In this document: in pieces, positions 10,370-49,809 of the stretch
Layout: every line of letters begins with the position of its first letter
Position numbering within the stretch: position 1 is the first letter of the stretch
Assembly (NCBI GenBank): GCA_016714085.1
Contig: JADJNW010000019.1
Coordinates: 11,248 to 75,247, forward strand
Direction of reading: 5' to 3'
Source of the DNA: Saprospiraceae bacterium
GTDB taxonomy: Bacteria; Bacteroidota; Bacteroidia; Chitinophagales; Saprospiraceae
DNA: 64,000 bases
Program-made: the position numbers and the translations under genes
Notes under the pieces: model-generated
Database searches by the model: none
What the model saw: only the letters and a program-made list of their open reading frames with translations
Told to the model about the DNA's origin: nothing

Positions 10370-10679
10370 AATTGTTTTGTGAGTATAAAGGGACAACGGT
10401 AGAAGGACTTTATCATCTTTTATCCCTATACCATCTACCTCTACCAAAATTCGGGTGCAAAGATAATGGATTTTTGTTTTGGAAAATTGGAATACTGGAA
10501 TTTTGGCACAAGGGTTTTACGAAAATTAAGAGACAGAGGTTTCAATTATGGATGAACCGTAAATTGATAAATATAAAAGTCGTATCATCTCTTGGTTGCC
10601 AAATCATTAAGTCACCTTGTCTAAAAATCCTCCCATTCCCCCATCCCCCAATCACCCCATTTTTTTATCTTTGCAGGCT

Positions 10680-12986
10680 ATGCGGCTAAAAAGTTTAGAG
10701 ATCAAGGGTTTTAAAAGTTTTGCCAATGAAACGGTGATGCACTTTGGCGAAGATGTGATTGGTATTGTCGGGCCCAATGGCTCTGGCAAATCCAATGTGG
10801 TGGATGCCATCCGCTGGGTGCTCGGCGAGCAGAAAAGCAGTGAATTGCGCTTGGATACGATGACAAGCGTGATTTTTAATGGTACAAAAAAGCGCAAACC
10901 GGGCGGCTTGGCCTCGGTATCCCTGACTTTTGAAAATACAAAAAACCTACTGCCAACAGAATATAATACGGTGACGGTCACGCGAATGCTTTACCGTACC
11001 GGCGAAAGCGAGTATCGATTGAATGGCGTGCAGTGCCGCCTCAAGGATATTACGTCTTTACTAATGGATACGGGCATTGGCTCGGATTCTTATGCGATTA
11101 TTGCATTGGGGATGGTCGATGATATTCTGGCGGACAAAGATAATTCCCGTCGTCGAATGTTTGAGCAAGCGGCTGGGGTATCGAAATACAAAGCACGGAA
11201 GAAGGAAACCTTGAGTAAATTGGAAAGCACTTCTGCGGATTTGGAGCGGATTCAGGATTTGTTGTTTGAAATCGAAGGAAACCTTGCTACCCTTGAAAAA
11301 CAAGCCAAACGCACCAAACGCTATTTTGAAATTCGAGAGGAATACAAGCTTTTGAGTATTGACTTGGGTTTGATCAAAGTGGCGACCTTGCGCGAAAGCC
11401 AGCGCGAAGTGCAGGGGCAGTTGGAGAAAGAAGAACATAGCTATCGGCAATTAGAAATTGAGACCCGCGAGATAGAAGCGCATTTAGAAAAAGAACGCAA
11501 AAGCAATCTCGATACCGAAAAAACGCTTTCCGAGCGGCAGCGCGAGTTGAATCATCTGGTAGGACAGATTAAGAATACCGAAGCCGACAAGCGGATGCAG
11601 GAACAAAAGAAACAATTTGTTGAGCAAACCCGCGTGAAGCTTGCTGAGGAAATTAAATCTGCTGAAAGCCGCATTGAGCAGTTAAAATTAGAGATTGAGC
11701 GTTATCAGATTGAAGTTAAAACCGAGCAATCCCAAGAGCAAAACTTAATGGAATCGCTGCAAATAGCTGATAATCAACTCAAAGAAATTCGGGAAGGTCA
11801 TGGTACTTTGAAATCTGATCTCGATGCTATTATGAAGGATCAGCAAGCGATTGAACGCGAGGTTTTTGAATTGGAAAAACGCAAGGCAGTTAATAGCAAC
11901 CAGATTCAGAGCGCTTTGTTTGAATTGGAGCGTAGCGGTTTTGATACGGAACAACGCCGAGAGGAGGTCGCGCAATTGCAATTGAAAATTGACGCACTGG
12001 AAGCAGAAGAAATAACTAAGAAAGCAATATTGGAAGCTTTGGAAAAAGCAGAAGAACAGCGGCATGAGGAATTGCAACAAGCAGAAGCGGCCTTGGAGGA
12101 ATTGACCAAAAAAATCGCCAGGATCAATCGAGAGATGGACGCTCGCCGCAATGAATTCAAGCTTACCCAGAGCATGATCGAAAATCTAGAAGGCTTTCCT
12201 GAATCGATTCGTTTTTTGAGCGGGAATAAAGAATGGAAGGACACGCCATTATTATCGGATATTATTTACGTGAAAGAAGTATATCGCGTCGCGATTGAAA
12301 ATTATTTGGAGCCTTATCTCAGCTATTATGTGGTCAAAGATTTGAAAGAAGCACAGCGCGCTATTGAACTCTTGAGTAAAAGTCAAAAAGGCAAGGCGAA
12401 TTTTTTTGTGCTGGACGCCTTTCAGAATCACGCTTCGCCGATTACGCTCTTGCCTGATACGTTGCAGGCGGTTGATTTGGTGGAAACAGATTCGGCTTAT
12501 CGCAATTTATTTGGCTATCTCTTGGGCAATGTGTTGGTAACGGAGCGCGAAGATTTGGTGACACAGTTGCCAGAAGGTGATGTCGTTTTGCTTTCCAAAA
12601 GTGGACGCTTTATCCAGCGAAAATTCAGTATTTCCGGGGGTTCAGTGGGTTTGTTTGAAGGTAAAAAAATTGGTCGCAAAAAGAATTTGGAAATTCTTGA
12701 AAATCAGGTCAAAAAGTTGGAAAAAGAATCCAACAGCCTTTCTACCGAATTTTATAATGCCAAATCAAAAATCGAAACGCTCAAAGCGCAGCGTGTGCCT
12801 GCTCAGATACAAGATGCTCGTAATGAATTAAATAAAGTTACACAACAAAAAATTACATTTTATACCCGTCTGGAGAATTTTGAAACTTTCCTTCGAGACG
12901 CAGATAAAAAAGCGCGAAGAATTACAACGAACGATGCAGGAATTGCGCGAGTCGAATATATTGATCGAGCAGGATTTGGCTTCTAA
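10680..12986 (+). CDS. smc: Chromosome segregation protein SMC, N-terminal fragment (head plus coiled coil plus hinge)
   Basis: MRLKSLEIKGFKSFANETVMHFGEDVIGIVGPNGSGKSNVVDAIRWVLGEQ is followed by a long coiled coil and the hinge (GFPESIRFL...YVVKDLKEAQRAIELL). The frame is lost near 12880. Confidence 0.9.
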   Translation: MRLKSLEIKGFKSFANETVMHFGEDVIGIVGPNGSGKSNVVDAIRWVLGEQKSSELRLDTMTSVIFNGTKKRKPGGLASVSLTFENTKNLLPTEYNTVTVTRMLYRTGESEYRLNGVQCRLKDITSLLMDTGIGSDSYAIIALGMVDDILADKDNSRRRMFEQAAGVSKYKARKKETLSKLESTSADLERIQDLLFEIEGNLATLEKQAKRTKRYFEIREEYKLLSIDLGLIKVATLRESQREVQGQLEKEEHSYRQLEIETREIEAHLEKERKSNLDTEKTLSERQRELNHLVGQIKNTEADKRMQEQKKQFVEQTRVKLAEEIKSAESRIEQLKLEIERYQIEVKTEQSQEQNLMESLQIADNQLKEIREGHGTLKSDLDAIMKDQQAIEREVFELEKRKAVNSNQIQSALFELERSGFDTEQRREEVAQLQLKIDALEAEEITKKAILEALEKAEEQRHEELQQAEAALEELTKKIARINREMDARRNEFKLTQSMIENLEGFPESIRFLSGNKEWKDTPLLSDIIYVKEVYRVAIENYLEPYLSYYVVKDLKEAQRAIELLSKSQKGKANFFVLDAFQNHASPITLLPDTLQAVDLVETDSAYRNLFGYLLGNVLVTEREDLVTQLPEGDVVLLSKSGRFIQRKFSISGGSVGLFEGKKIGRKKNLEILENQVKKLEKESNSLSTEFYNAKSKIETLKAQRVPAQIQDARNELNKVTQQKITFYTRLENFETFLRDADKKARRITTNDAGIARVEYIDRAGFGF

Positions 12987-14229
12987 ACAAATATTAATGA
13001 TGGAAGCCAAGACCCATATTTCCAGCACGGACGAGACATTTCGGCAAATGGCAGAGCAGTTGAGCCAAGCTTCGGCGGTTTACAATGAGAAAAATATCGA
13101 GCATATTCGACAACAAAATAAAGTTTCGACTTTGCAAAGGGAATTATCCTATCGCGAAAAGCAAATTGAAGAATTGACCCAAGCGCTTGAAAATAATCAT
13201 AAAACCCTGGGTCAGAACGAACAAGAAGCCGAGCAAATCGCTGATTCTATTGTAGAAATGGAGCAAATGCTGGTTGAATCCTATGGTGAACGCAAGGAAC
13301 GAGAAGCGGCATTGAGCGAAGTAGAGCAATTTTATTTTAAAGCAAGGGGTGAAATCAACGAGCAGGAAAATAAGCTTCGGAATTTGTCCAAGCAAGTGCA
13401 GAATGCGCAGATGCTGATTAATAATCTCAAGGATAAACTGACCGATGTAAAATTTAAGGTCAACTCCATCAATCAGCGTATTCAGATTGAATTTAATATA
13501 GAATTGAGTGAAATAAAGGAACCTTCTTTCACAGAGCCGATGACTGAAGTAGAATTGGAAATGAAAGTGGAGCGCTTGAAAAATCGCCTGGATAATTATG
13601 GCGAAATCAATCCGATGGCGGTAGAGGCGTACGATGAAATCAAGCAGCGTTATGATGATATTTCGCAGCAACGCGACGATGTAGTAAAAGCCAAAGAATC
13701 TTTATTACAAACGATTAAAGAAATCGAAGAAACGGCGACCGCCCAATTCCTGGGCGCTTTCGAGCGGGCAAGGTTAAATTTTATTGAAGTATTTCGCAGT
13801 TTATTTACAGAAGATGATAATTGTGATTTAATTTTATTAACACCCGAAAATCCTTTAGAATCCAAGATTGAAATCGTTGCCAAACCAAAAGGCAAGCGCC
13901 CTCAGACGATCAATCAACTTTCTGGTGGCGAGAAAACGCTCACGGCTACGGCCTTATTATTTGCATTATACCTGCTGAAACCCGCGCCATTCTGCATTTT
14001 CGATGAGGTGGATGCCCCGCTGGACGATACGAATATTAATAAATTTAATAAAATTATAAAGAAATTCTCCAAAGATTCCCAATTTATTATCGTCACGCAT
14101 AATAAACTCACCATGGCAGCAGTAGATACGATTTACGGCGTGTACATGGCAGAGCAAGGCGTTTCAGGCGTTGCGCCGGTGGATTTTAGAGATTTTGAGC
14201 ATGTGGGGGCGTTTGAGATGCGGGGGTGA
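12880..14229 (+). CDS. smc: Chromosome segregation protein SMC, C-terminal fragment (coiled coil plus ABC signature and Walker B)
   Basis: QLSGGEKTLTATALLFALYLLKPAPFCIFDEVDAPLDDTNINKF..IIVTHNK matches the SMC C-terminal head. It overlaps the previous ORF by ~100 nt in another frame, so this is one gene with one indel. Confidence 0.9.
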   Translation: MKLSFETQIKKREELQRTMQELRESNILIEQDLASKQILMMEAKTHISSTDETFRQMAEQLSQASAVYNEKNIEHIRQQNKVSTLQRELSYREKQIEELTQALENNHKTLGQNEQEAEQIADSIVEMEQMLVESYGERKEREAALSEVEQFYFKARGEINEQENKLRNLSKQVQNAQMLINNLKDKLTDVKFKVNSINQRIQIEFNIELSEIKEPSFTEPMTEVELEMKVERLKNRLDNYGEINPMAVEAYDEIKQRYDDISQQRDDVVKAKESLLQTIKEIEETATAQFLGAFERARLNFIEVFRSLFTEDDNCDLILLTPENPLESKIEIVAKPKGKRPQTINQLSGGEKTLTATALLFALYLLKPAPFCIFDEVDAPLDDTNINKFNKIIKKFSKDSQFIIVTHNKLTMAAVDTIYGVYMAEQGVSGVAPVDFRDFEHVGAFEMRG

Positions 14230-22251: not shown

Positions 22252-25200
22252 TCAAATCTTTTCTTTCAGTCCGCCCAAGGCTTCCATAAACTGCTGATTA
22301 TTAGAGGTTACGCTGAGAATTCCCTGCTTATACCCAAAAAAGTACACCAACTCACTGGAAGTCTTGATATAAACATATAAGCGATCATCTTCATTTGTTG
22401 GCATGCGGCATTCGATGTAGCAAGTCATCATTTTGTGAAGCAATTCACCGTTGACACTCATAATGCCGATTTTCGGATCGGTGTTCAAAAAAGACTGATA
22501 TTCTGAATTCCATTTCATTTTGGCGCGGCTAAAAACAAAAGTATAAGGATTATATTTTTTTGGAATATCAAGATAACCGGAACTGATGCCTGTAATCGCT
22601 GTTTCTACCTCGGCATTGGCAGGGAATAGCTCCGTTGCAGCTTTTTTATAGAAATTTACATCCGCTAAATAAGGCACAACTCCGGCATCGAAACTCGACG
22701 TAATATCATTATACAAAATTTTAAGCAAATTCTCCGGCAACTGAAAAGTAACGCCCAACATAAATTCGGCATTGAGTGGCATTTCGGGTTCAGCGTTTTG
22801 CAAAGGATCGGCGACCAAAGAAGCGGTATCGCTTACCAATTCAGGGTTTTCGATGATAGGCGGGAATGCGGTTTTTGCAAATCCGGCTGCATCGATTTTT
22901 ACATATTTCAAACCAGAACCCAAATTAAATTTGCCTTCAGCCTCTAAAGTACCGTCATTATTTTTGAAAGTGAAAAGGTTGCCTTTGAGTTCATTCACCA
23001 AGACTTTCGAGGAGTCTCCAAAAATAAAATGATCTTTGTTTTCTAAATATTTGAACACGCCTTTAGCAGGAAAAATTTCTCGATCCTTGCGGAAATGCAA
23101 TGGCATCATCACTCTCGAATACATTCGGGCGGTTTCTTTGCTCAAGAACAATCCTGTCTCCAAAGGTTCTCCTTCTTCACTTTTGGGCGTGTTGTAACGG
23201 ATGGCTAAATCCTGTTTATCGCCTTCACTTTTGATAGTGAACCAATATTTGCCTGGAAGCTTGTCAGCATTTAACCGTGCAAAGCCATCAAAACTAAGGT
23301 TTTTGGTCTCTGCGCTGAGGCTAATCGTGCCATAAAATTCGGTTTTATGATCGATATAAAATCCGGCTTCTGATTTTACATCGCCGACAGCACGCGTGAC
23401 GGTGCGTTTTTCATTATAACTTCCTTTGCCAACGGGTTGACCTGTAATGTCTTGAAACTCAATTTCTTGCTGCTTATCAGCAATATTATATTCATAAAAT
23501 CCGCTCGCGCGATAAAAACGTCGCCCCAGAATATTGACCGTAGCACGGTTGATGACGTGGTTTTGATTGACTGTATCGCATACGATTTTTGCATTTTCCA
23601 AGGTGGTCATCACACCACCAGGCTGCACTTCTACATAACCACTATCGGGATAAATAAAAGCATCAGCTGCAACAATATGAGGCACACCACTTATTTTTAA
23701 TTCGCTGGTTTTTAGATCATAAGAAGCATTTTGTCCTTGAAATCGCAAGGAATCCTGATCGGGATGAATCGATAGGAAACTTCCCAATTTGCTGGCATCC
23801 GATTTAAAAGTAATGAGCTCATTTTTCATATCCCAACCAAACTCGTTCATCGAGGTTTCGTACTGATTGTAGGGTAGGGTAGTGACGAGGAATTCGTCGT
23901 TGGCTTTGAACGTACCTATTTCTGTATCAAAATCAACATCACCTTTTACATTGGAAGTGCGCAATGCGAGATTTTCTGCACCCGGAGCTTTAATTTTTAA
24001 ATCCGTCGTATCTGCTTTCGCAGAAAAAGCGCCAAAAGAAAAGAGTTCGGAAGTCATATTCGCTTTGTCCCAATCGAGTGTTCCATCTGCTTTCAAACCA
24101 CCTGGGGTAAGGATAAGCGTACCGCTCATGGTGTGATTTTCTTTGTTGAAAAGCTTGAATGGCGCGGTTTCCGAGCGAATATACATGCTATCTTGATAAG
24201 GCCGCCAATCGATGCTTACATCCACACCACGTACTTTGGGTGTTTGAATGCCTGATGTGCGGTCTTCTTCTAAATTGAATTGGTCGGCGCGGGCGGTCAT
24301 CTCATCGGGCTTAAAAAAGATACCTTTCGCATCAATCGAAGCACCGAGATATGTCAATTTTCCTTCGCCTACAAGCCCTGTATTGCTTAGGTTTACTTTC
24401 CCAATATAATTGCCTTTGCCTTTGTACACGGGGTAACCTTCTTTGGGCGTTTCGCTAATAAAACCGAGTGAAAAATCACCTTCTTGCAAGCGTAGGGTTT
24501 CTTTAAAATCCGGGAAGATATCTGCTGAATGCAATTCACCTTTAAATTGAATATCCTTTGCTGTAAACTTATCTAAATGGTTGAAACTGAATGGCAACAC
24601 CCGAAAGTAAAACGAATCTCTGGGGTATGTTTTTATGCTGTCTGCTTCAAGATCATAAAAAACAAAGGCATCTGCGTTGGTTTGCAGGGACGGAAAAATG
24701 GGAATATCATCTTGCCCCGATTTGTTGTTGGGCGCATCAATCAAAAGCGTACCCTTTAAGTGCTCCACACGTGAAGCGATAGAATATGCAATCGGCTGAT
24801 TATTAGCATCTAATGAATCGGTTGGAACGAAAAGATCAAAATATCGCACCGAATCTAAAGCGATTTGAAATTTATCATAATCAAAGTGAAAATCTTTTCC
24901 TTCCAACACACCAAAACCTGCAAAAATTTTCCCGTCAAAATCCATATTCCGATTGGGTTTCATCACAATTTGATCACCCGTGGGCAGCAGCGCGACTTTT
25001 TGTTTTTTGCTGAATTCTATATTTGGCACCCCGTTGATGAGCATAGAATTGTCGCGGAGGTTAATGGTGGCATTGGTGCTATCTGTTTTGGAGCGGATTT
25101 TTAAAAAATCATAATCCACTTTCTTTTGGTCGGCATCGGCATAATGAAAAACCTTGTCTTTCACTTCCACTATTTGCTTTTCACTATCATAATTAATGAA

Positions 25201-26244
25201 GCCTTGCGCGACTAAATCATACAATAATCGCTGAATATTATCCACCGTAAATTTCGCATTGATGCGCGTCGCCAGCAGGCTGGCAGGGATGTAGCGGGTT
25301 TGTTCGCGTTCCGCTGTTACCTTCATAATCGCGATTGGATTGATGGTGCCAATATTTTGAATGCGTTGGTATTCTCCTTGATTAAAATAATTGAGCGACT
25401 CAAAATGAACGTCTGTTTTAAAAGAGGGTTTGATGACTTTTTTGCCAATGACAATCGAATCGCCATCCAGATAAGCCTGAATATCTTCGGCGTCAATATT
25501 CAATTGATGCACGGAGCTAAAAAAAGGATTGCGATCGCTACCGCGTTCACCGCGAGTGAGTTGTACTTCGTTTTGATCAATTTTGTATCGAATGTTTACG
25601 GAAGGATGATAGATTGAATCTTTGCCAAAGTGCATGACCGTTTCTACCCTGTCAGCTACGATCAATTCACCTCGCCGGATGGTAAATAACTCAGCTGCTC
25701 CTCGGAACGCAATTTTTTTCTTTTCACTTTCTACCAATACCTTGGCCTTATTATCCTTGCTGCCGTAGCCATATACTGTAGAACCGTGCAAACGGAACCC
25801 TCCGGTAAATTTGATGCCTTTACCTAAATCATTGATTTCCAATAGCTGGTCATTCGATTCAAAGCGAGGATAAGAACTGGAAGTTTCATCACTGGCAAAG
25901 ATCAGTTTATCACTAAAAGAACCCGGAATAAGCTTGTTGCCAAAGAATAAAGGGTAATGAAGCTTGGCATCTTTTACTTCGTATAGCCCTTTTTTTGTTT
26001 GTAGTTCATACGCACCCAATTCCACATATACATCACTCATCTCAAAGCGCTCCCAAGTGACTTTGCCATTTTTACCGCGCCATATATCATCCACAGGAAA
26101 ATATTCGCCCGAAGTTTGATAGATAAAAATCGAATCTTTGCGATGACCAGCCATCAAATCAAGTTTCTCAAAAGAAAGCGAGACTTTTTTATCCTTGTAA
26201 TGCCATTGGTATTTGTCGGTCAGGACGTACCAATTTGTACCCAA
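22252..26244 (-). CDS. Large secreted protein of unknown function, main fragment (1330 aa)
   Basis: It is a long uninterrupted ORF, beta-rich, with no motif I recognise. It continues upstream into ORF 26220..26702 and downstream into a 29-codon tail ending at 22154, both through homopolymer frameshifts. Confidence 0.7.
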   Translation of the reverse strand: MGTNWYVLTDKYQWHYKDKKVSLSFEKLDLMAGHRKDSIFIYQTSGEYFPVDDIWRGKNGKVTWERFEMSDVYVELGAYELQTKKGLYEVKDAKLHYPLFFGNKLIPGSFSDKLIFASDETSSSYPRFESNDQLLEINDLGKGIKFTGGFRLHGSTVYGYGSKDNKAKVLVESEKKKIAFRGAAELFTIRRGELIVADRVETVMHFGKDSIYHPSVNIRYKIDQNEVQLTRGERGSDRNPFFSSVHQLNIDAEDIQAYLDGDSIVIGKKVIKPSFKTDVHFESLNYFNQGEYQRIQNIGTINPIAIMKVTAEREQTRYIPASLLATRINAKFTVDNIQRLLYDLVAQGFINYDSEKQIVEVKDKVFHYADADQKKVDYDFLKIRSKTDSTNATINLRDNSMLINGVPNIEFSKKQKVALLPTGDQIVMKPNRNMDFDGKIFAGFGVLEGKDFHFDYDKFQIALDSVRYFDLFVPTDSLDANNQPIAYSIASRVEHLKGTLLIDAPNNKSGQDDIPIFPSLQTNADAFVFYDLEADSIKTYPRDSFYFRVLPFSFNHLDKFTAKDIQFKGELHSADIFPDFKETLRLQEGDFSLGFISETPKEGYPVYKGKGNYIGKVNLSNTGLVGEGKLTYLGASIDAKGIFFKPDEMTARADQFNLEEDRTSGIQTPKVRGVDVSIDWRPYQDSMYIRSETAPFKLFNKENHTMSGTLILTPGGLKADGTLDWDKANMTSELFSFGAFSAKADTTDLKIKAPGAENLALRTSNVKGDVDFDTEIGTFKANDEFLVTTLPYNQYETSMNEFGWDMKNELITFKSDASKLGSFLSIHPDQDSLRFQGQNASYDLKTSELKISGVPHIVAADAFIYPDSGYVEVQPGGVMTTLENAKIVCDTVNQNHVINRATVNILGRRFYRASGFYEYNIADKQQEIEFQDITGQPVGKGSYNEKRTVTRAVGDVKSEAGFYIDHKTEFYGTISLSAETKNLSFDGFARLNADKLPGKYWFTIKSEGDKQDLAIRYNTPKSEEGEPLETGLFLSKETARMYSRVMMPLHFRKDREIFPAKGVFKYLENKDHFIFGDSSKVLVNELKGNLFTFKNNDGTLEAEGKFNLGSGLKYVKIDAAGFAKTAFPPIIENPELVSDTASLVADPLQNAEPEMPLNAEFMLGVTFQLPENLLKILYNDITSSFDAGVVPYLADVNFYKKAATELFPANAEVETAITGISSGYLDIPKKYNPYTFVFSRAKMKWNSEYQSFLNTDPKIGIMSVNGELLHKMMTCYIECRMPTNEDDRLYVYIKTSSELVYFFGYKQGILSVTSNNQQFMEALGGLKEKI

Positions 26245-26850: not shown

Positions 26851-27657
26851 TCAGGCAAGCCCAGTCCCCTTTTCGATTTTTTCGTCGAGCGTAAAGCGAA
26901 AGTCTTCCATAAAAGTGAGCAGAATCGGAACGTCTTGTTTTAAAATGCCGGACACCAATAATATACCATTTACCCGCAATTTATCGTGCAGCGCTGCCAA
27001 GGAATCCAGAATCACATTGCGATTGATATTCGCCAGAATGATATCATAACCAGTATCTAATACATTATCAATTGTCCCATGTATTGCCTGTACATTATCT
27101 ACATTATTCACTTGCGTATTTTCGAGGGTATTTTGGTATGCTTCCACTTCAATATCCACGGCATCTACAATAGAAGCGCCCATTTTGGACGCCAAAATCG
27201 CCAGGATGCCTGTGCCACAGCCGTAATCAAGGACTTTCGCGCCTGAAAAAGGTTGCATCCGCATCATTTGGATCATCATATGAGTCGTTTCGTGATGCCC
27301 CGTGCCAAAGGCCATTTTAGGATTGATGATCAATTCGTATTTGAATCCTGGTTTTGGAGGATGAAAATCTGCGCGGACGTAACAAAAATTTTCCACTTCA
27401 ACGGGCTTGAAATTCGCTTCCCATTCAGCATTCCAATTGCGAGGGGCAATTTCTTCTTTGTCCCAAGAGAAGTCAAATCGATTTTGTAAAGCTTCTAATT
27501 CGGATTCGATTTTTGATATATCTTCTGATACCGGCAGATAAGCATCCAATCCTTCCTCCGTTTCTTCAAAAGCTTCAAAAGGCAATTCATTCAAGAAAGC
27601 CAATAGCAAATCGCTCTTGCGCGGATCAATAATAATACGATAACAGAGATAATTCAT
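26851..27657 (-). CDS. prmA: Ribosomal protein L11 methyltransferase
   Basis: FGTGHHETTHMMIQMM, VLDYGCGTGILAILASKMGA and DIILANI form the PrmA pattern. Start is MNYLCYRI (cat 27655-27657). Confidence 0.85.
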   Translation of the reverse strand: MNYLCYRIIIDPRKSDLLLAFLNELPFEAFEETEEGLDAYLPVSEDISKIESELEALQNRFDFSWDKEEIAPRNWNAEWEANFKPVEVENFCYVRADFHPPKPGFKYELIINPKMAFGTGHHETTHMMIQMMRMQPFSGAKVLDYGCGTGILAILASKMGASIVDAVDIEVEAYQNTLENTQVNNVDNVQAIHGTIDNVLDTGYDIILANINRNVILDSLAALHDKLRVNGILLVSGILKQDVPILLTFMEDFRFTLDEKIEKGTGLA

Positions 27658-27674
27658 TAGTCTGTTTTGAGAGA

Positions 27675-28205
27675 TCAATAACCATTTTCGCCGGATGCGT
27701 GTGCACCGTAGCGATGCTTGATGGTGGAGGGCGCTACACCAACATTGCTATCTATGTTAAAAGGGACACCTGCGGCATCAATGCCAATTTTTATCATTGC
27801 AAGGTGATGCACCGCGTGATCGTGCGCAAACATTAGCTCTCGTCCGATAGAGGACTGAAGCAAAGGCCTTTGCTCATAGCTTTGATTAGAAAAATCGCCA
27901 TAAACCTGCATCATATCTGCTTCCAACAATTGCATTATAGAATCGCTTACACGCTGGAAAGTTGCCTTTGCATACTGTGCATCCGATTCGATGGCAGGGT
28001 CACGGTCGCGGTTGGCGTAATCAATTACGCCAGATTTTGTACCTTTTAGTAAACAGAGATAAAAATCGAGAATATGTCTGAAATGTTGTCCCAATGTCGA
28101 ACCTTTAAAAATGTCTAAAGGCTTTGCATAAGTTTGATTATCAATGACTTCGAGTAATTTTGTAATTTGCTCTATAATCTGTCTGTTTCCTTCAATGCAA
28201 TTCAT
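27675..28205 (-). CDS. DinB-family protein
   Basis: The His triad is spaced as in the DinB four-helix bundle (GQHFRHILDFY ... HDHAVHHLAMI). The 176-aa size fits. Confidence 0.6.
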   Translation of the reverse strand: MNCIEGNRQIIEQITKLLEVIDNQTYAKPLDIFKGSTLGQHFRHILDFYLCLLKGTKSGVIDYANRDRDPAIESDAQYAKATFQRVSDSIMQLLEADMMQVYGDFSNQSYEQRPLLQSSIGRELMFAHDHAVHHLAMIKIGIDAAGVPFNIDSNVGVAPSTIKHRYGAHASGENGY

Positions 28206-29665: not shown

Positions 29666-32600
29666 ATGGCGATTACTCTACGTACCAAAGCGCTGCTTAT
29701 GGCGGCAGGTTTACTTACATCATTGGCTTTATCCGCACAAAATCACCCTATTACACAAGGGATGATTAGAACTTGTGGCGGTTTTTTTCTGGATAGTGGT
29801 GGCAATGACCAAGGCTATAATCCTGATGAAAATTATACCGCTACTATTTGTTCGGATGGTTCTACGGGCACGCACGTGCAACTCACTTTTTCGAGAGTGG
29901 AAGTCATTCCCGGCGATTCGCTTTGTTTTTATGATGGGAATAGCGCCGCGGCACCTCCCTTATCCTGTATTGCTGATTTCAGTTACGAAGGTCCTTTTAT
30001 TATTCAAGCTACAGCAGCCAACCCTTCAGGATGTATTACGGTTGTTTTTAAATCGAATGCTACAGATCAAGGAAGCGGCTGGAGTGCTGACATTAATTGC
30101 ATTCAATCTTGCCAGACCATTTTATCGGAAATAGTTTCTGCCACGCCAGCTATCGAGCCTGCGGACACTGGTTGGATTGACCTTTGCCCGAGCGATCGTG
30201 TAACCTTGTCGGCAAGAGGAATTTATCCTCAAAACGGAATTACCTATACCCATTCTGATTTAACTTCCGAATTTATGTGGGAATTTGGGGATGGTAGCAC
30301 AGCGGTTGGGCCAAATGTTTCCCATGAATATCGGGAATCGGGAGGCTATATCATTCAACTCATTATTACCGACGCACAAGGCTGTCGCAGCACCAATTTT
30401 ATCAATCAGCGCGTCAGGGTTGCGCCCAAGCCAACTTTCGCAGTAGGTGATAGCATTCCCTTGGAAATTTGCTCTGGCGATACAATTGCCTTGAATTCTA
30501 TAATTAATGAAATCAATCGCAATTATTCTTTATCGGTCATTTCTAATGAAGCCACTTTCCAGGCAGGAGCAATTCGTTCTGACTCCTTAGCATTGCCCGA
30601 TGGTACTGGTAATTCTCATGAAACCAGTGTGAAATTGCAAAATTTCTCTCCGGGGCAAGTGCTAGAAAACGCGGGTGATCTGGAAAGTATTTGTGTGAAT
30701 ATGGAGCATACCTGGCTACGTGATTTGGAAATCCGATTATTTTGCCCCAATGGTCAATCTATTATCTTGCACAATTTTGGTGGGCGCTCCGGTTCGGAGG
30801 TGTATCTGGGAGAGCCGGTAGATTTCGATGGTACTAACCCAACTCCTGGGCGAGGCTACGATTATTGTTGGACAAACGACGCTGCGAATACTTGGCTGGA
30901 ATATGCCAACGCGAATTCTCCAAGAATTTTACCGTCTGGCGATTATAGCCCTTACGAATCTTTTCAGAATTTGATAGGCTGCCCTTTGAATGGCGAGTGG
31001 ACAATAGAAGTGCTTGATTCCTGGGCAATTGACAATGGCTTTATTTTCTCATGGGGTATTAATTTTAATCCAAACTTATTCCCGGAACTAGAAAAATTCA
31101 AACCAAATATTGTCAGTGATACCTGGGAAAACAATCCTACTATTTTTGATTTTTCATCATCTGATATTAACGCCAGTCCGTTGAATGCCGGTAGCGCCAA
31201 TTATGTCTTTCAGGTGACCGATGATTTTGGTTGCGTTTTTGACACTTCCTTAAATATCAAAGTATTGCCGCCAACGCATCCGAATTGCCGCAATTGCAGC
31301 GAGAGCCTTCGCCCGGCGCAGGATACCATTATTTGCGAGGGTGAAACCGTAGCTTTCAATGTTGGTGCGGGACCTACTTCAGAGACTACAACCGTTACTT
31401 TTGAAAGCTTTCCACAATACAGTTTTGGGAATTCCAATCACCCGCCAAGCAATCCTTATAATGCGAATATTAATGTGAATAGCATTTTTCCGGCTACGAT
31501 TACCAATGTCAATCAGCAAATCTTATCGGTTTGTATGGATATTGAAACCGATTTTCTATCAGATTTAAGGATATTTCTGATTTCACCCTCAGGGCAAAGT
31601 CTGGAATTGACTACTGGCAACGGCGGAAGCACAGATTTCTATACGAATACTTGCTTTTCGCCCACCGCCACTACGCCAATCACTACTGGCACATCTCCTT
31701 TTACGGGAACTTACCGACCGGAAGGCAATTGGAATGTATTAAATGGCGCCACCGTAAACGGCAATTGGAGTTTGCGGATTACAGATGCCCTGGGTACTAC
31801 CGAAATGGGGATTTTAAAATCCTGGTCGATTACTTTTCAATCAACCAATACAACTCAATACACCTGGACGCCGGGAACAGGCCTATCCTGCACTAACTGC
31901 CCCAACCCGGTGGCTACGCCAAGCGCTACAACAAATTACGTCGTTCGGGTCAATGATAATTATAATTGCGGAGCAAGCGACACCGTAACCGTAAATGTCG
32001 TTCGAGATGCGCCTGCGCCTGTCGTTTCTTGTGGATTAAGTCCTGACAGTACTGCATTGGTGTTTGATTGGTCGGCGATACCCGGCGCTTCCAATTATGA
32101 AGTGAACGTCATCAAAAATGGTACAGCCTCGGGCTGGCAAGGGCCGGTGAACGGCTTGCAATATTCGCTCGATGATTTGATCAATAATGATACGGTTTCA
32201 TTGGAAGTGCGCCTTTATACTGGCGGTCAACCCATTAATTGCAATGTAGAAATCGGCACGGCAACTTGCGCTTACCTGGTTTGTGAATTGGATATTGATT
32301 CGCTCGGCTCTACGCCGGTGGATTGTTTTGGCAATAATACAGGTACTGCCTTTATTGCTGTTTCCGGCGGTATGGGCGGCAATTACCGATACCTTTGGAA
32401 CGATACACTTCGACAAATCGAACAAACCGCTATATTTTTAGAGGCTGGCACTTATCGTGTCGTCGTTCGAGATGAAATCAACTGCATCGCTTCCGCAGAT
32501 ATTACCGTTGAACAGCCGGATTCTATCTCAATCACTACCCAAGTGACCGATGCACTATGTGTTGACGATGCCAATGGGAGCATTGCAAGCACCGTAAACG

Positions 32601-34459
32601 GAGGTGTTGGCACCTACACTTACAGTTGGAGCAACGGCCAAACCAATGCAAACGCCAGCAACTTAACGGCTGGTGATTATACATTAAGCGTGACCGATGC
32701 CAACGGCTGTATGGCTCAAGCCCGAGCCAGTGTAGATGAACCCGATAATCCTGTGACTATAACCGTAGAACAAACTTTCAAGGGCTGTAGTGGGGAGCGC
32801 AATAACGAAGCAACGATCACCCCTGCCGGAGGAACGGGTGCTGGTTATACTTTCAATTGGAGCAATGGCCAAACCACTGCGATTGGAGTTGATTTGGATT
32901 CCATCAATTATGCGGTCACTGTTAGCGATGCCAATGGTTGTCAGGCAGTAGAAAGTATCAAATTGCAAGACTGGGCACCAATTGTTCCCAATATCATTAT
33001 GAGTGCGCCCCTTTGCAATGGTGATACCAATGGCGCTTTGGGTGTAAACATCGTCACAGGTGGGGCCGGCCAAAGCGAGACCGATTATACCTTTCAATGG
33101 AGCACCGGCCAAACCGGAAACGCCATTAGAGATTTGGCTGGAGGCATCACTTATACCGTCACCGTCACCGATATTCAAGGTTGCATTGGCCTTGCTTCGC
33201 GCTTGCTGGAGCAACCACCACAAGTTTCTTTTGAAATCAAAGTAACCGAGCCGCTCTGCTTTGGCTCCGATAATGGTTCAGCCACTGTCACCAACCTGGT
33301 TGGACAAGGCACAACTTTCTCGTATCGCTGGGATCAAAATGCCAAGAATCAAACGACCCAAACCGCCACTAATCTGATCGCTGGCAGCTACACGGTCACG
33401 GTGACCGATGCTAAAAATTGCAGAAGCACAGGTACAATCGCTATTACACAACCTTCCAGAATCGAAAGTCTCTTCGATGTAGTGAATAATAAGTGTTTTG
33501 GCGAAGACAAAGGCGTCATCACCTCCAATATCAAAGGCGGAACGCCCGGCTACACCTTTGCCTGGTCAAATAATGAAACCAATTCCAAGCTGAGCGATTT
33601 GGTCGCTGGTACTTACACCTTGACTGTGACCGATGCCAATAATTGCATTCATACTACAAGCGTTGCCGTGGACGAACCCGATCAACTGAGCGCTGAATTC
33701 AAGATAACCGACGCCACTTGCAATGGCGACCGCGACGGCCGCGTGAGCGTGACCCCCATTGGCGGCACAGGGCCTTATCAATACAGCCTGGACAACAAGA
33801 ATTTCAGCACAACCAGCACATTTATTGCTTTAAAAGCAAACGATTATAAAATCTACGTCAAAGACGCCAATGGCTGTACCTATTTGGATAGAGCTATTGT
33901 AGGCGAACCCGCCAAATTCATCGTCGATGCGGGCGATAACTCTTACACCATTCGCCTCGGCGACAGCCTTCAACTGACCGCCACTTCCCTCAACGGGCAA
34001 GGCTTTATTTCTTACGCCTGGTCTGCGCCTTTCGGCAATTCTTTAAGCTGTAGCGAATGCGAAACCGTTACCGCTGCTCCGCAAGACATGATTATTTATG
34101 AATTGTACGGAATAGACGAAAAAGGCTGCGAAGCAACCGATAGAGTAACCATCGTCGTACAAAAAATCCGCGAAGTGGCTGTACCCACCGGCTTTACGCC
34201 AAATGCCGACGGCAGCAATGATCTTCTCTTAGTCCACGGCTTGGACGGCACGCGCATCAAAATGTTCCGAGTCTATGATCGCTGGGGCGAATTGCTCTAT
34301 GACTTCGGCGGCTTTATGGTCAACGATAAAAACAGTGGCTGGGACGGCAATTTCCGAGGAAAGCCTATGAACAGCGGCGTCTATATCTGGTATCTCGAAG
34401 TAGAATATATCGACGGTATGACCGAAGCTTTAAAAGGACAAACCACTCTGATTCGTTAG
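29666..34459 (+). CDS. Giant T9SS type-B sorting domain adhesin-like protein (CUB-like, PKD, two proprotein-convertase P-domains, ~8 SprB-type repeats, type-B CTD)
   Basis: It has a signal peptide and a CUB-like CGGFFLDSGG..YTATICSD..LCFYDG..GWSADINC. A PKD motif (WEFGDGSTAVGPNVSHEY) follows, then two P-domain-like segments (CVNMEHTWLRDLEIRLFCPNGQS; CMDIETDFLSDLRIFLISPSGQS). Repeats have the form C.G..NG......GG...Y.Y.WSNGQT......L.AG.Y.VTVTDANGC. The C-terminus is VPTGFTPNADGSNDLLLVHG...VYDRWGELLY...GVYIWYLEVEY..G...LKGQTTLIR. Confidence 0.9.
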   Translation: MAITLRTKALLMAAGLLTSLALSAQNHPITQGMIRTCGGFFLDSGGNDQGYNPDENYTATICSDGSTGTHVQLTFSRVEVIPGDSLCFYDGNSAAAPPLSCIADFSYEGPFIIQATAANPSGCITVVFKSNATDQGSGWSADINCIQSCQTILSEIVSATPAIEPADTGWIDLCPSDRVTLSARGIYPQNGITYTHSDLTSEFMWEFGDGSTAVGPNVSHEYRESGGYIIQLIITDAQGCRSTNFINQRVRVAPKPTFAVGDSIPLEICSGDTIALNSIINEINRNYSLSVISNEATFQAGAIRSDSLALPDGTGNSHETSVKLQNFSPGQVLENAGDLESICVNMEHTWLRDLEIRLFCPNGQSIILHNFGGRSGSEVYLGEPVDFDGTNPTPGRGYDYCWTNDAANTWLEYANANSPRILPSGDYSPYESFQNLIGCPLNGEWTIEVLDSWAIDNGFIFSWGINFNPNLFPELEKFKPNIVSDTWENNPTIFDFSSSDINASPLNAGSANYVFQVTDDFGCVFDTSLNIKVLPPTHPNCRNCSESLRPAQDTIICEGETVAFNVGAGPTSETTTVTFESFPQYSFGNSNHPPSNPYNANINVNSIFPATITNVNQQILSVCMDIETDFLSDLRIFLISPSGQSLELTTGNGGSTDFYTNTCFSPTATTPITTGTSPFTGTYRPEGNWNVLNGATVNGNWSLRITDALGTTEMGILKSWSITFQSTNTTQYTWTPGTGLSCTNCPNPVATPSATTNYVVRVNDNYNCGASDTVTVNVVRDAPAPVVSCGLSPDSTALVFDWSAIPGASNYEVNVIKNGTASGWQGPVNGLQYSLDDLINNDTVSLEVRLYTGGQPINCNVEIGTATCAYLVCELDIDSLGSTPVDCFGNNTGTAFIAVSGGMGGNYRYLWNDTLRQIEQTAIFLEAGTYRVVVRDEINCIASADITVEQPDSISITTQVTDALCVDDANGSIASTVNGGVGTYTYSWSNGQTNANASNLTAGDYTLSVTDANGCMAQARASVDEPDNPVTITVEQTFKGCSGERNNEATITPAGGTGAGYTFNWSNGQTTAIGVDLDSINYAVTVSDANGCQAVESIKLQDWAPIVPNIIMSAPLCNGDTNGALGVNIVTGGAGQSETDYTFQWSTGQTGNAIRDLAGGITYTVTVTDIQGCIGLASRLLEQPPQVSFEIKVTEPLCFGSDNGSATVTNLVGQGTTFSYRWDQNAKNQTTQTATNLIAGSYTVTVTDAKNCRSTGTIAITQPSRIESLFDVVNNKCFGEDKGVITSNIKGGTPGYTFAWSNNETNSKLSDLVAGTYTLTVTDANNCIHTTSVAVDEPDQLSAEFKITDATCNGDRDGRVSVTPIGGTGPYQYSLDNKNFSTTSTFIALKANDYKIYVKDANGCTYLDRAIVGEPAKFIVDAGDNSYTIRLGDSLQLTATSLNGQGFISYAWSAPFGNSLSCSECETVTAAPQDMIIYELYGIDEKGCEATDRVTIVVQKIREVAVPTGFTPNADGSNDLLLVHGLDGTRIKMFRVYDRWGELLYDFGGFMVNDKNSGWDGNFRGKPMNSGVYIWYLEVEYIDGMTEALKGQTTLIR
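32270..33930 (+). repeat. Coding tandem array of ~8 SprB-type repeats (~75-80 aa each) inside the giant adhesin gene
   Basis: Repeat cores seen in the translation end ...RVVVRDEINC, ...TLSVTDANGC, ...AVTVSDANGC, ...TVTVTDIQGC, ...TVTVTDAKNC, ...TLTVTDANNC and ...KIYVKDANGC. Confidence 0.8.
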
Positions 34460-46458: not shown

Positions 46459-49008
46459 TTAGAAGAATATTCTATCTAAGTCGGCTTCAAAATGCTCTTG
46501 TAATATTTCAAATAAAAAAACGGAGAGCGATTGTCGGCCGAGTTCACGGTTGATTTTTAGCACATGATCTCTGATAAAAGGGGGTTCATAAATTCGGCGC
46601 GGCGGCTGCGCGGTATAAAATTCACGACGATGGATGTCTTCGGGCGTAAAAAAACCGTGTTTTTCTATTTGAATAACATACAAATGGTCGAATTGATCAG
46701 AAAGCTTCCAGCGATGGATACCTTTCTCGGTTTCAAGAAATAATTGAACGCCCATGCCCAATAAGGTAAACTCAAGGCCATAAAGTTTGTCATCAGGTTT
46801 TTCACCTTGGTTTTGCCAGTTTGGCTTTTCGAGATCACAATCCAATTTAATGTATTCTTTTCGGGGATCAACAGTGGTAATGTAATTGTTCTGCTCATCA
46901 TAGCTGCCAAATTCTATCGGCTCATTATAAAAAGCTTCTCTAAACCACACGGATTGGGCAGAATATCGAAATCCTTTCTCCTGAAAAATATCGAGGTAAA
47001 AACGTACAATCTGCTCAAGATGAGTGCCATAAATAGCAAAAAAACAAACATTCGATTCTGGTATCAGCCCTCCGGCAAGTCGAAGTTTAACCGTTTTTAG
47101 CTTTGCCGACCAATTCTCCATCTGATCATATAATTTTGCTTGCACCGGCGCAAGCCCCAAACTGCTCATGCTTAATGCGTTTTCAATAGCTTCGATCTCT
47201 TCCTGCAGTTCCTGCGTATGCGCCTTTATTTGTAGAAAGTCGCTGTATCGATTGGCAAAAGTGGGATTATTCCAAAAATTTTTATTATGTTTTTTTTCAG
47301 ATTCCAAGTGTTCCAATTCACTAAGAAATTGATGGTAGGAATTTCCATCCTGTAGCGTAGTAATATGGCGGCGAAGATTGGCGGCATGATTGGCTTGGGT
47401 CATTTTCTCCAATTCCTCCAGCATTAGATCCAAAGCCAAAGGGTCATCCTCGATATTTATTTGCAATTCTTGATCAGAAACATCCACTTGTACCGAAAGC
47501 TGGTCGGTCGTGTCATAAGCATTCAGCGCTTTAGCCAAAGGCACTGCCAATTGTTCGCGGATAACCCTTTGCAAAAAACGCGCTCCGTATCGCGGGTGGT
47601 AACCTTTCCCCCCCAAGTAATCGAGCACTGCATCCTTTATTTGTAAATCCATCCGGCGGTAGCGAATACCTTCTCTTTGCTTTAAGAATGCTAATTCGCG
47701 TTCGACTACAAAACGGATCGTAAAATTATCGAGTGGCTCAAAAGCAATCACTTCATCAATTCGATTAAATAATTCCGGGCGGAAATGCTTTTGAACGGCA
47801 TTCAAAAAATGCTCGGTCACATCTTTAGCACTTGTTTCATTATTCCAACCGACTCGACTATTTTGCAATGCGCTTGCGCCAATATTGGAAGTCATAATAA
47901 TAATCGTACTACAAAAATTAACCAATTTTCCCTGATTATCGGTCAGGCGCCCTTCACTTAAAATTTGCAGCAGTAAATCGTAAAAACTTGGATGTGCTTT
48001 TTCAATTTCATCAAAAAGCAATACGCAGAAAGGCTCGCGGCGAACCGCGGAAGTCAATAAACCATCTGCAAAATAATCCGAACCGATCAATCGCATAGCG
48101 GTAAAAGGATCAGAAAATTCACTCATATCAAAACGAATCATCCGTTGGCGATTGCCAAACATAAATTGGGCCAGCACTTTAGCCAATTCGGTTTTGCCTA
48201 CTCCTGTTGGCCCCACAAACAGGAAAGAAGCGATGGGCTTGCCGGCTCGTGTGAGCGCCGCTTTGACCGATGCCAGCACATTTACCACACCATCAACCGC
48301 TTTATCCTGCCCGAAAACATTGGAATGAAATTCATTTCTGACTTTTAAAATATTCATTTGCACCGCAGGATCGACGATGAACACAGGCATTCCTGTTTCT
48401 GCGCAGAAATATTCGATGATCTCCGAACGACTGATCTCCGGACTATTACTGGGTGCGTTTTTTTTATTCAACAGCATACTTTCCAGAAAGCGGATGGGTC
48501 GGCCGGGCATCCCGGCATAAGGCACAAAGCGACTATGTAAACGGATTACCTCTTGAATAGCATCCTCGCTGATTTGAAGATGGCGTCCTTCGGCAATGTC
48601 GCGTACTTTTTGTAAAATAATACTTTCTAATTGTTTTTGCGGAGGTTGCTGAAGGCGAATAATCTGGAAAAAGGAAAGAAAATTGGAGCTTTTCAATTCT
48701 ATTCTGGCGAGTTCTTCTTCGGTACACTCAGAAATAATCACAATTTCACCCTGAGCAATATAATTGCGCATAAAGTCAGCAAGACTCACGCTATTACCGG
48801 CGTATTGGCCTACTTCAAACAGTTCCATCAGATTGCGAATAAAAAGAATATGCTCGCTTCCTTTCAACTCATTACAAAAAAGCGCCATATTATTTTCCCA
48901 AGCGCCGGTGTCGCCTGTCAATTCTTTGATGAGGGTAGAAGCGGTGGTCTCCCAGATTTGCCCTTTAACACGCAATTTCTTTTGCTGATGCGCCAATTCC
49001 CAAACCAA
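46459..49008 (-). CDS. Clp/Hsp100-family double-AAA+ ATPase, main fragment: D1 (degenerate Walker B), D2, and a C-terminal release-factor-like domain lacking GGQ
   Basis: D1 remnants include HILFIRNLMELFEVGQ, AQGEIVIISECTEEE and PGRPIRFLE. D2 carries FGQDKAV, FLFVGPTGVGKTELAK, VLLFDEIEKAH, IIMTSNIGA, FRPELFNRIDEVIAFEPL and GARFLQRVI. The C-terminal 320 aa carry RF-like blocks (see findings). Confidence 0.8.
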   Translation of the reverse strand: MVWELAHQQKKLRVKGQIWETTASTLIKELTGDTGAWENNMALFCNELKGSEHILFIRNLMELFEVGQYAGNSVSLADFMRNYIAQGEIVIISECTEEELARIELKSSNFLSFFQIIRLQQPPQKQLESIILQKVRDIAEGRHLQISEDAIQEVIRLHSRFVPYAGMPGRPIRFLESMLLNKKNAPSNSPEISRSEIIEYFCAETGMPVFIVDPAVQMNILKVRNEFHSNVFGQDKAVDGVVNVLASVKAALTRAGKPIASFLFVGPTGVGKTELAKVLAQFMFGNRQRMIRFDMSEFSDPFTAMRLIGSDYFADGLLTSAVRREPFCVLLFDEIEKAHPSFYDLLLQILSEGRLTDNQGKLVNFCSTIIIMTSNIGASALQNSRVGWNNETSAKDVTEHFLNAVQKHFRPELFNRIDEVIAFEPLDNFTIRFVVERELAFLKQREGIRYRRMDLQIKDAVLDYLGGKGYHPRYGARFLQRVIREQLAVPLAKALNAYDTTDQLSVQVDVSDQELQINIEDDPLALDLMLEELEKMTQANHAANLRRHITTLQDGNSYHQFLSELEHLESEKKHNKNFWNNPTFANRYSDFLQIKAHTQELQEEIEAIENALSMSSLGLAPVQAKLYDQMENWSAKLKTVKLRLAGGLIPESNVCFFAIYGTHLEQIVRFYLDIFQEKGFRYSAQSVWFREAFYNEPIEFGSYDEQNNYITTVDPRKEYIKLDCDLEKPNWQNQGEKPDDKLYGLEFTLLGMGVQLFLETEKGIHRWKLSDQFDHLYVIQIEKHGFFTPEDIHRREFYTAQPPRRIYEPPFIRDHVLKINRELGRQSLSVFLFEILQEHFEADLDRIFF

Positions 49009-49715
49009 AGCGGTTTTTCCGACACCCGACGCCCGACTAATAATATGCTGCGATTGAATTGATTTTTCAATGCTTTTGCTAATTGCTCCAGCGGAGATTC
49101 CATGCCATAAGCCAACGATTTATGAATATCAAGCAGTTGAGCGGCTTTTGGAAGCAGTGGATTGGCACTAGTGCTTTCCATTTCTTCGATCTCAGCAGGA
49201 AAAAGGGCACGAAGCTCGATTTCATCGCTCCACAACTCTATTACATCATACCAAATAGTAGTGATAATTTGTTGAATCGCGCTCAGGCGCTTTTTTCGAG
49301 TAAACTCGATGCGAATAATTTCTTGAAATTGCTTGGGAATATCCGTTTTAGAAGCAGCAAAGGTCTCAAGGCCAAGCGCTGGCACAATCCCTTTTACACC
49401 TTCATTACTTTCGGTATAAAAAAAATCAAAAGAAAGAGCAAATGCAGGATAGCTAAACCCATCTTTTGCTGCGGGAAAATTTACTTCTAAAGTATCAGAA
49501 TAATATTCGGAATGGCGAAATTCATCGAGCAGTTGACGAAATTTCCCTTTGTCAAACACTTGTCGCTGAACGATTTCAGCATATTTTCCAGCCAAAATTT
49601 CAAAGCCTTGCCCAATGCGCACCACCTCTTTGTCCGCCATTGGAATAAAAAAGTGCGTATTAGCTTGAAAATTAATCTTAAACGCGTAAAAAGGAATTGT
49701 AATTTTATAAGCCAT
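48918..49715 (-). CDS. N-terminal fragment (unrecognised ~230-aa domain plus the start of D1 Walker A) of the Clp/Hsp100-like ATPase
   Basis: The ORF ends ..NRSILLVGRRVSEKPLWFG. Restoring one base at ~49030 gives ILLVG.SGVGKTALVWELAHQQ, which continues into ORF 46459..49008. The start is uncertain (ATG 49715 or 49640; the track uses TTG 49745). Confidence 0.7.
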   Translation of the reverse strand: MAYKITIPFYAFKINFQANTHFFIPMADKEVVRIGQGFEILAGKYAEIVQRQVFDKGKFRQLLDEFRHSEYYSDTLEVNFPAAKDGFSYPAFALSFDFFYTESNEGVKGIVPALGLETFAASKTDIPKQFQEIIRIEFTRKKRLSAIQQIITTIWYDVIELWSDEIELRALFPAEIEEMESTSANPLLPKAAQLLDIHKSLAYGMESPLEQLAKALKNQFNRSILLVGRRVSEKPLWFGNWRISKRNCVLKGKSGRPPLLPSSKN

Positions 49716-49809
49716 CCCGTAGCTCGATGTTTGGTAAAGAGCCAATAAATGTAGGAAAATTTTGATAAATAATGCCGGATGACTTTTTCGCTTTTGCGAT
49801 TAGGATGCT

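Follow-up and report, generated by a model that had tools for sequence, protein, structure and literature searches.

A Clp-type ATPase with a GGQ-less, release-factor-like C-terminal module is conserved in Saprospiraceae and Lewinellaceae

Does a Clp-type unfoldase of a Saprospiraceae bacterium end in a remnant of a peptide release factor, and what might such a fusion do? The question is raised by a minus-strand locus in a 64,000-nucleotide stretch of genome assembly GCA_016714085.1 (contig JADJNW010000019.1, positions 11,248 to 75,247 of the forward strand). We refer to this whole stretch as the window and count all coordinates from its first nucleotide. A reading of the letters alone, here called the original prediction, had joined two open reading frames (ORFs) into one protein with four parts: an N-terminal region, two AAA+ rings of Clp type (D1 and D2), and a C-terminal extension resembling class-I release factors (RFs) that lack their GGQ domain. 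We examined the gene, its relatives and the predicted structures of its terminal regions. It is practically certain, in our judgement, that the gene belongs to a conserved family in which a Clp ATPase carries an RF-derived, GGQ-less module; we call the members Clp-RF proteins.

The C-terminal module is 329 residues long. An AlphaFold2 (AF2) model built from an 85-sequence alignment has a predicted local distance difference test score (pLDDT) of 97.0 and a predicted template modelling score (pTM) of 0.90, with helices at module residues 3-34, 36-54, 62-96 and 105-128. When this model was compared with the PDB using Foldseek, ranks 1 to 48 were occupied exclusively by class-I RFs (RF2, RF1, mtRF1, mtRF1a and PrfH), mostly at a probability of 1.00 and with a best E-value of 5.3e-7. 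Profile alignment with hhalign gave a consistent picture. A 29-sequence family profile matched E. coli RF1 and RF2 at 73.6% probability (E 2.9e-5), and a 148-sequence family profile matched them at 93.4% (E 2.5e-7) over 243 columns. The larger profile scored 87.5% (E 3.6e-6) with RF2 alone and 21.6% (E 1e-3) with RF1 alone. The RF profile consisted of these two E. coli sequences, and no prfA or prfB gene that could have enriched it was found in the window or the related loci. The colinearity with class-I RFs claimed for the extension is thus borne out by both the fold search and the profile alignment.

The hhalign alignment pairs NFWNNP with DVWNEP of RF2, CFFAIYG with CYLDIQAG or AFLEVRAG, GMGVQLFLETEKGIHR with GDYAYGWLRTETGVHR, and RRIYEPPFIRDH with NRTYNFPQGRVTDH. 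Four of the five matching blocks named in the original prediction are reproduced in this way; the remaining one, ILQEHFEADL against IIQEHQADQL, is offset by about 10 residues and is probably coincidental. The motifs common to the module and the RFs occur in the same order (FW; hhh-G; E-x-G-x-H-R; R-x-Y...D-H), and the invariant or near-invariant residues G141, Y151, G224, E241, G243, R285 and D294 fall within RF core motifs. Together, the model and the alignments indicate that the module descended from a class-I release factor, with RF2 as its closest relative.

The C-terminal region could instead be unrelated to RFs and resemble them by chance or convergence. Several results would fit such an explanation and count against RF ancestry. 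The Pfam models PCRF (PF03462) and RF-1 (PF00472), whose use the original prediction had proposed as a check, give no match on the window protein at E<=1. A phmmer search of PDB sequences with the module found no significant RF match, and the family hidden Markov model reached only Thermus RF1, at E 0.83, although at the colinear position. The Foldseek TM-scores are also low, ranging from 0.25 to 0.43, with the best values obtained for compact or pre-accommodated RF2 (5mdy_7, 2ihr). Low TM-scores are, however, expected of a multi-domain protein minus one domain, and sequence-to-profile search is too weak for this module. Its fainter matches are a weak one to the NCBIfam prfB model (E 0.14, model positions 3-105) and those to PCRF, which is the Pfam family matched by the largest number of members scanned singly (2 of 29; best E 0.0016, below threshold). 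A chance resemblance would also have to produce RFs at all 48 of the best fold matches, a 243-column colinear profile alignment and a shared motif order, and we consider it very improbable.

The module differs from an RF in what it has lost and gained. The original prediction had counted about 20 residues and no GGQ motif where the GGQ domain of about 110 residues should be; the linker found there has 22 residues, and no GGQ domain (RF-1, PF00472) was detected in the window protein. In hhalign, TPEDIHRREFY of this linker lies opposite NPADLRIDVYR, apparently the start of RF2 domain 3, which suggests that the linker is the scar of a deletion. Its family motif, P-x-x-I-H-R-x-x-F, may have a function in its own right. 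The string GGQ was flagged in four homologues, and in P0139, which was checked by eye, it belongs to the E-x-G-x-Q-W strand and not to a GGQ domain. The elements with which RFs read stop codons have also changed. The SPF/PxT loop is shortened and variable in the family, with WKLSDQFDH set opposite LVRKSPFDSGGRRH of RF2, as is the GGxEA tip of helix alpha5, where IYG--THLEQ lies opposite QAGSGGTEAQ. Relative to an RF, the module has gained a helix at its N-terminus, and its domain 2 contains an insertion of variable length, 10-80 residues (about module residues 170-220). Judged by its sequence, the module retains the fold of the decoding part without the decoding motifs and cannot read stop codons in the manner of RF1 or RF2.

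Relatives were sought by scanning one genome per species with an alignment of D1. A relative is present in 313 species genomes, and details are given here for the best 80. These 80 are assigned to Saprospiraceae, Lewinellaceae, Phaeodactylibacter, Lewinella or unclassified Bacteroidota or Bacteroidia metagenome-assembled genomes (MAGs), and they include two cultured isolates, Flavilitoribacter nigricans DSM 23189 and Phaeodactylibacter xiamenensis KD52. In tblastn alignments of the 80 loci, the protein is covered by one segment in one frame, from residue 1 to about 1081-1085 in most cases, and the shorter matches mostly stop at contig edges. The survey of Bacteroidota orthologues suggested by the original prediction therefore finds the AAA+ and RF-like parts in a single ORF across dozens of genomes, both isolates included. 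A word-indexed protein search with the module returned one relative, P0001, which is 69% identical and lies on a syntenic contig in a second Saprospiraceae MAG; it is cut by the contig, yet runs upstream into D2-small. An exhaustive phmmer search recovered 150 proteins, among them 75 full-length proteins of 1029-1141 residues (representatives of 50%-identity clusters) that carry the module at about residues 755-1090. A stand-alone RF-like module was also considered, but none was seen among these proteins: all matches shorter than 1000 residues begin at arbitrary points of the full-length protein and are fragments of it. In Saprospiraceae and Lewinellaceae, the fusion is conserved as one gene. 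Its parts evolve at different rates, with 20-35% identity in the module versus 47-59% in D1. Databases give these proteins generic names, either "AAA family ATPase" or "ClpA/ClpC", and mark no domain on the tail.

A sister subfamily is found in Planctomycetota and Myxococcota (P0058, P0061 and P0080; about 760-820 residues) with 35-38% identity over about 520-710 residues. Its members have a D1 without Walker B (e.g. VLHFGSLLELMEVG), a canonical D2 and an F-G-[FL] loop, and some share part of the N-terminal region. They stop shortly after D2-small and carry no RF-like tail, so the tail is confined to the Saprospiraceae-type proteins. This sister subfamily itself seems to be uncharacterised.

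The copy in the window is interrupted. The ORF listing contains the minus-strand ORFs 48918..49745 (275 residues) and 46459..49008 (849 residues), and six-frame translation follows frame 0 as far as ...NRSILLVG and then frame 2 from SGVGKTALVW..., giving one protein. After the break the second frame reads SGVGKTALVWELAHQQ..., and the Walker A motif G-x-S-G-V-G-K-T is split and one base short. The two-nucleotide remnant at the break is flanked by GGG (49032-49034) and TCG (49027-49029). In a DNA alignment of the nearest relatives, every relative aligned at this site has one additional base, as GGG-CCA-TCG (G-P-S) or GGT-GCT-TCC (G-A-S). The encoded residue is Pro in 79 and Ala in 37 of the 148 full-length family members on which all motif statistics are based. 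Restoring one base in the first Walker A does join the two ORFs into a protein of about 1085 residues, as originally proposed, and the relatives have both the base and an intact ORF. The homologues begin with MAYK or MAFx...PF, which places the start at ATG 49715 and sets the length at 1085 residues.

The deletion might be real, in which case the gene would be a pseudogene in the source organism and no full-length protein would be made. The deletion does stand in the assembled sequence, and P0006, a 265-residue protein from a Saprospiraceae MAG that is 100% identical to the upstream ORF over the compared part, is deposited as a separate hypothetical protein. On the other hand, the missing base is the only lesion in 3.26 kb, and both halves are open and colinear with the relatives over residues 1-1085. 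The essential gene smc is likewise split in the same window, into plus-strand ORFs 10617..12986 (SMC_N head and hinge) and 12880..14229 (SMC_N C-terminal head) that lie in different frames and overlap around a run of six A (about 12904-12909). Among the 80 related loci, only L021 has several frame changes, and the naming of its contig looks like that of a long-read assembly. Because the lesion is single, colinearity is intact elsewhere and a second frameshift lies in smc, the sequence points to a likely assembly error in the window copy, and a genuine pseudogene is unlikely. Programmed frameshifting was considered separately and is unlikely, as the relatives show no shift and the site has no slippery heptamer.

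The AAA+ rings were compared with those of E. coli ClpA and ClpB. Pfam assigns AAA_2 and ClpB_D2-small (PF10431), the latter above its cut-off at residues 676-749 of a 1095-residue reconstruction, and D1 has generic P-loop matches only. NCBIfam places a ClpA model over residues 214-741 (E 1.5e-100) and a ClpB model on D2 (E 1.2e-101); the scores stay far below the ClpA equivalog cut-offs TIGR02639 and NF008263 (337.5 versus 993 bits and 242.7 versus 1350). The original prediction of a canonical Clp D2 ring is well supported. The D2 motifs FVGPTGVGKTELAK, VLLFDEIEKAH, FRPELFNRID and NSRVGWNNE are all present in the translation, both D2 Pfam matches are significant, the D2 Walker A is invariant, and the Walker B D-E is conserved in 148 of 148 members. 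The D2 pore loop is 5 residues shorter, and its Y/F is partly conserved.

D1 was also predicted to be a Clp ring, and here the agreement is partial. It is an AAA+ D1 that retains the Walker A signature GxSGxGK[TS], but it is not a normal Clp D1, as its Walker B is degenerate, with R-N in the place of D-E (ILFIRN versus ILFIDE); R is found in 106 and N in 123 of the 148 members. The pore-loop position has an invariant Trp (G-W-Q versus K-Y-R). The insertion of about 90 residues that forms the ClpB-type M-domain was not found in D1 in the alignment with E. coli ClpA and ClpB (columns about 470-595). From these motifs we infer that D1 is an ATP-binding, non-hydrolysing ring, and since it lacks Walker B, D2 is probably the only motor.

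The NSRVGWNNE stretch does lie at the ClpP-docking loop position, as predicted. Its V-G-W tripeptide aligns with I-G-L of ClpA, E. coli ClpB has F-G-E there, and the Trp is unusual. In the family, the loop after sensor-1 has I, V or L in 106, 18 and 9 of the 148 members, followed by G or S (112 and 25) and then W, F or L (77, 36 and 20). Docking of ClpP through this [ILV]-G-[WFL] loop is possible.

The N-terminal region, described at first as about 230 residues without a recognisable motif, is better delimited at about 215 residues. The absence of a known motif stands: no Pfam family matches residues 1-233 at E<=1, and Foldseek gives no significant match in the PDB (best E 0.07) or BFVD (best E 0.016). 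It is not the double Clp repeat of Clp_N, which is all-helical; the AF2 model is alpha/beta. Confidently modelled but matched by neither search, it could be a substrate- or adaptor-binding domain of a new kind. The features of the gene are collected in Table 1.

Table 1. Coordinates of the Clp-RF gene and its features in the window.
Feature	Coordinates	Strand	Basis or detail
Whole gene, Clp-type ATPase with RF-like tail, 1085 residues	46459..49715	-	ATG 49715, stop 46459-46461, 1-nt deletion inside
N-terminal domain, residues 1-215, alpha/beta, family-specific	49071..49715	-	AF2 pLDDT 88.5, pTM 0.71
D1 AAA+ module, about residues 216-455	48352..49070	-	NCBIfam ClpA model, E. coli ClpA/ClpB alignment, family statistics
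D1 Walker A	49012-49034	-	
Frameshift site, 2-nt remnant CG of the Pro/Ala codon in D1 Walker A G-[P/A]-S-G-V-G-K-T	49030-49031	-	
D1 Walker B position, ILFIRN	48832-48849	-	
D2 AAA+ module with D2-small	47500..48351	-	Pfam AAA_2 1.6e-50, ClpB_D2-small 1.2e-11
D2 Walker A, GPTGVGKT	48190-48213	-	
D2 Walker B, LLFDE	48007-48021	-	
V-G-W tripeptide at the ClpA IGL ClpP-docking loop position	47845..47853	-	Alignment with E. coli ClpA/ClpB
D2-small domain	47500-47721	-	
RF-like module, helical part (module residues 1-128), matching RF domain 1 and the long helix into domain 2, with RF2-type FW motif	47065..47448	-	
RF-like module, beta-rich part (module residues 129-329), matching the RF domain 2/4 superdomain	46462..47064	-	
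22-residue linker KHGFFTPEDIHRREFYTAQPPR in place of the GGQ domain 3 of about 110 residues; family motif P-x-x-I-H-R-x-x-F, then R-R	46597..46662	-	

The surroundings of the gene are conserved among the relatives. The gene aroK and a DUF429 gene lie upstream on the same strand; downstream come genes for a secreted S8 peptidase and a short-chain dehydrogenase, together with folE. In many of the loci L006-L084, the DUF429-like gene, which encodes 200 residues and has the same orientation, separates aroK from the Clp-RF gene; it is immediately upstream in 20 loci. The S8 peptidase, which has a signal peptide, follows the Clp-RF gene on the same strand in 30 loci, often after a gap of a few bases. 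The window has neither the DUF429-like gene nor the S8 peptidase. The same synteny contains one distant representative with 24% identity in the module. The inspection of orthologue neighbourhoods proposed by the original prediction thus revealed conserved synteny, but of housekeeping genes and with no functional partner; the arrangement reflects vertical inheritance in one lineage and gives no functional clue.

Elsewhere in the window are genes for a PrmA-type ribosomal protein L11 methyltransferase (26851..27678, minus strand) and for a two-cassette ABC protein with an ABC_tran_Xtn linker, of ABC-F type (8510..10447, minus strand). Both are translation-related and lie 20-40 kb from the Clp-RF gene; neither is part of the neighbour clusters that the relatives conserve within 10 kb. 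Two proteins with a CHU_C type IX secretion signal domain are typical type IX secretion system cargo of Bacteroidota: a large secreted protein with PKD domains (2731..4866, plus strand), and a 1597-residue secreted protein with SprB repeats, a proprotein-convertase P-domain and PKD domains (29666..34459, plus strand). A 1330-residue ORF (22252..26244, minus strand) matches no Pfam family at E<=1e-5.

What might the fusion do? On the ribosome, RF domain 1 sits at the stalk and GTPase-associated region, and superdomain 2/4 sits at the decoding centre. Since the tail appears to retain both of the RF parts that hold an RF on the ribosome, the module could be a non-catalytic docking device that uses the RF body plan to place the hexamer at the factor-binding and A-site region. 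Such docking would involve neither stop-codon reading nor peptide release. D1 would bind ATP without hydrolysing it, D2 would act as the sole threading motor, and ClpP may bind at the [ILV]-G-[WFL] loop. From there the motor could act on a stalled complex or on a protein held by the ribosome, pulling it out, unfolding it or degrading it. Ribosome docking of the module, argued from its ancestry, is a plausible and testable hypothesis to which we give slightly less than an even chance. A more specific version is advanced only tentatively: a dead, RF2-derived probe of the A site and factor site, joined to a possibly ClpP-coupled motor, would recognise vacant or stalled ribosomes and spend ATP to strip, unfold or degrade the bound protein, the nascent chain or the ribosome.

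Several observations weigh against a role on the ribosome or against coupling to ClpP, and some of them fit a different use of the module. The decoding loops, which provide most of the specific A-site contacts of RFs, are not conserved. As the residues that are conserved belong mainly to the fold core, the module could now serve another purpose. The neighbour clusters of the 80 loci and one distant member contain no ribosomal or rescue gene and neither ClpP nor ClpS. The evidence for ClpP docking is a single tripeptide, and six 38-kDa tails following D2-small might obstruct ClpP. The window copy might also be a true pseudogene, which would leave the source organism without a full-length protein. 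The module might instead have been exapted for a non-ribosomal role, such as protein-protein interaction, substrate or adaptor binding, or auto-regulation or oligomerisation in the manner of M- and N-domain control in ClpC and ClpB, with only the RF fold surviving. Loss of the GGQ domain along with the decoding loops, the fast evolution of the module relative to D1, the neighbourhood devoid of ribosome-related genes and a sister subfamily that works without the module are all in keeping with this explanation. Against it, RF domain 1 and superdomain 2/4 have been retained together and in colinear order, which is needed for docking and not for a mere scaffold. Family-specific conserved motifs of surface type (LRR, FW, PxxIHRxxF, RR) point to a maintained ligand site, and, to our knowledge, all known descendants of the class-I RF fold act on ribosomes. 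We therefore hold a non-ribosomal role to be possible but not favoured.

Whatever the role of the module, the Clp-RF protein represents a conserved, previously undescribed domain architecture and a variant of the Clp unfoldases. It is the inverse of the catalogued RF derivatives in that the codon-recognition body and domain 1 are retained and the hydrolase is removed. If the module docks on ribosomes, the fusion would covalently link a Clp machine to the translational A site, for which we know of no precedent, and would give ATP-driven ribosome quality control a tractable model in bacteria. If it acts as an A-site probe, Saprospiraceae and Lewinellaceae would possess an unknown pathway of ribosome quality control or turnover, a counterpart of Pelota-ABCE1 or Vms1-Cdc48 assembled from bacterial parts. 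Even without ribosome docking, the family would show cleanly how a core translation factor can lose a domain and be exapted, and it would define a Clp subfamily whose D1 is hydrolysis-dead and whose N-domain is new. The cultured hosts P. xiamenensis KD52 and F. nigricans DSM 23189 make experiments feasible.

No description of a Clp-RF fusion was found in the literature searched, which agrees with the original prediction that no characterised protein has this architecture, and the generic database names are in line with it. With its two tandem rings, the protein is a class-I Clp/Hsp100-type AAA+ ATPase of a distinct subfamily, and among known systems its AAA+ part is closest in plan to ClpA and ClpC, the class-I unfoldases that feed ClpP. 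It shares with them two AAA+ modules, D2-small, a canonical D2 with Walker A and B, sensor and Arg-finger, a hydrophobic-Gly-aromatic tripeptide at the IGL/VGF position and, as in ClpA, no M-domain. It differs in having its own 215-residue N-domain instead of Clp_N, R-N at the D1 Walker B, G-W-Q and not K-Y-R in the D1 pore loop, a D2 pore loop shortened by 5 residues and a 329-residue RF-like tail, and it scores 337 versus 993 bits at the ClpA equivalog cut-off. Unlike ClpB and Hsp104, it has no coiled-coil M-domain in D1-small.

The tail is most similar to RF2 (PrfB), with which it shares the domain 1 helices and FW motif and, in order, the domain 2/4 motifs h-h-h-G, E-x-G-x-H-R and R-x-Y...D-H. 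Unlike RF2, it has no GGQ domain 3, of which a 22-residue vestige is left, its decoding elements are shortened, and it has an extra N-terminal helix and a domain 2 insertion. RF2 is also a free factor, whereas the module is the tail of an AAA+ hexamer subunit. With no GGQ domain, no intact PxT/SPF element and scores below the Pfam PCRF threshold, the module is not a release factor.

PrfH, which is among the fold matches (9mor_A), is comparable as a specialised class-I RF paralogue with an altered codon-recognition domain. PrfH is an RF homologue that rescues damaged ribosomes together with RtcB. No rtcB-type gene, to which PrfH is linked, was recognised among the conserved neighbour clusters or in the Pfam-annotated locus L085. 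PrfH retains the GGQ domain and lacks domain 1 (PMC6514570). The module is the reverse, having kept domain 1 and lost GGQ. A 2019 survey of RF evolution describes the bacterial derivatives RF1, RF2, ArfB/ICT1, C12orf65, PrfH and MRPS35 as all retaining the hydrolase domain, in MRPS35 without the catalytic Gln; it lists no hydrolase-less bacterial RF derivative and never mentions Clp (PMC6514570).

The nearest functional analogies, and analogies only, are the archaeal and eukaryotic systems Pelota/Dom34 with ABCE1 and Vms1 with Cdc48. Dom34 binds in the A site, with ABCE1 as its partner ATPase. It is a release-factor paralogue without hydrolase activity, and Vms1, which resembles a release factor, has the AAA+ ATPase Cdc48 as an interaction partner (PMC6514570). 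Both factors have the aeRF1 fold, which is unrelated, and act with an ATPase that is a polypeptide of its own: ABCE1 is an ABC protein, and Cdc48 is recruited through a VIM motif. In the Clp-RF protein, by contrast, the RF body is of bacterial type and is joined covalently to the Clp ATPase.

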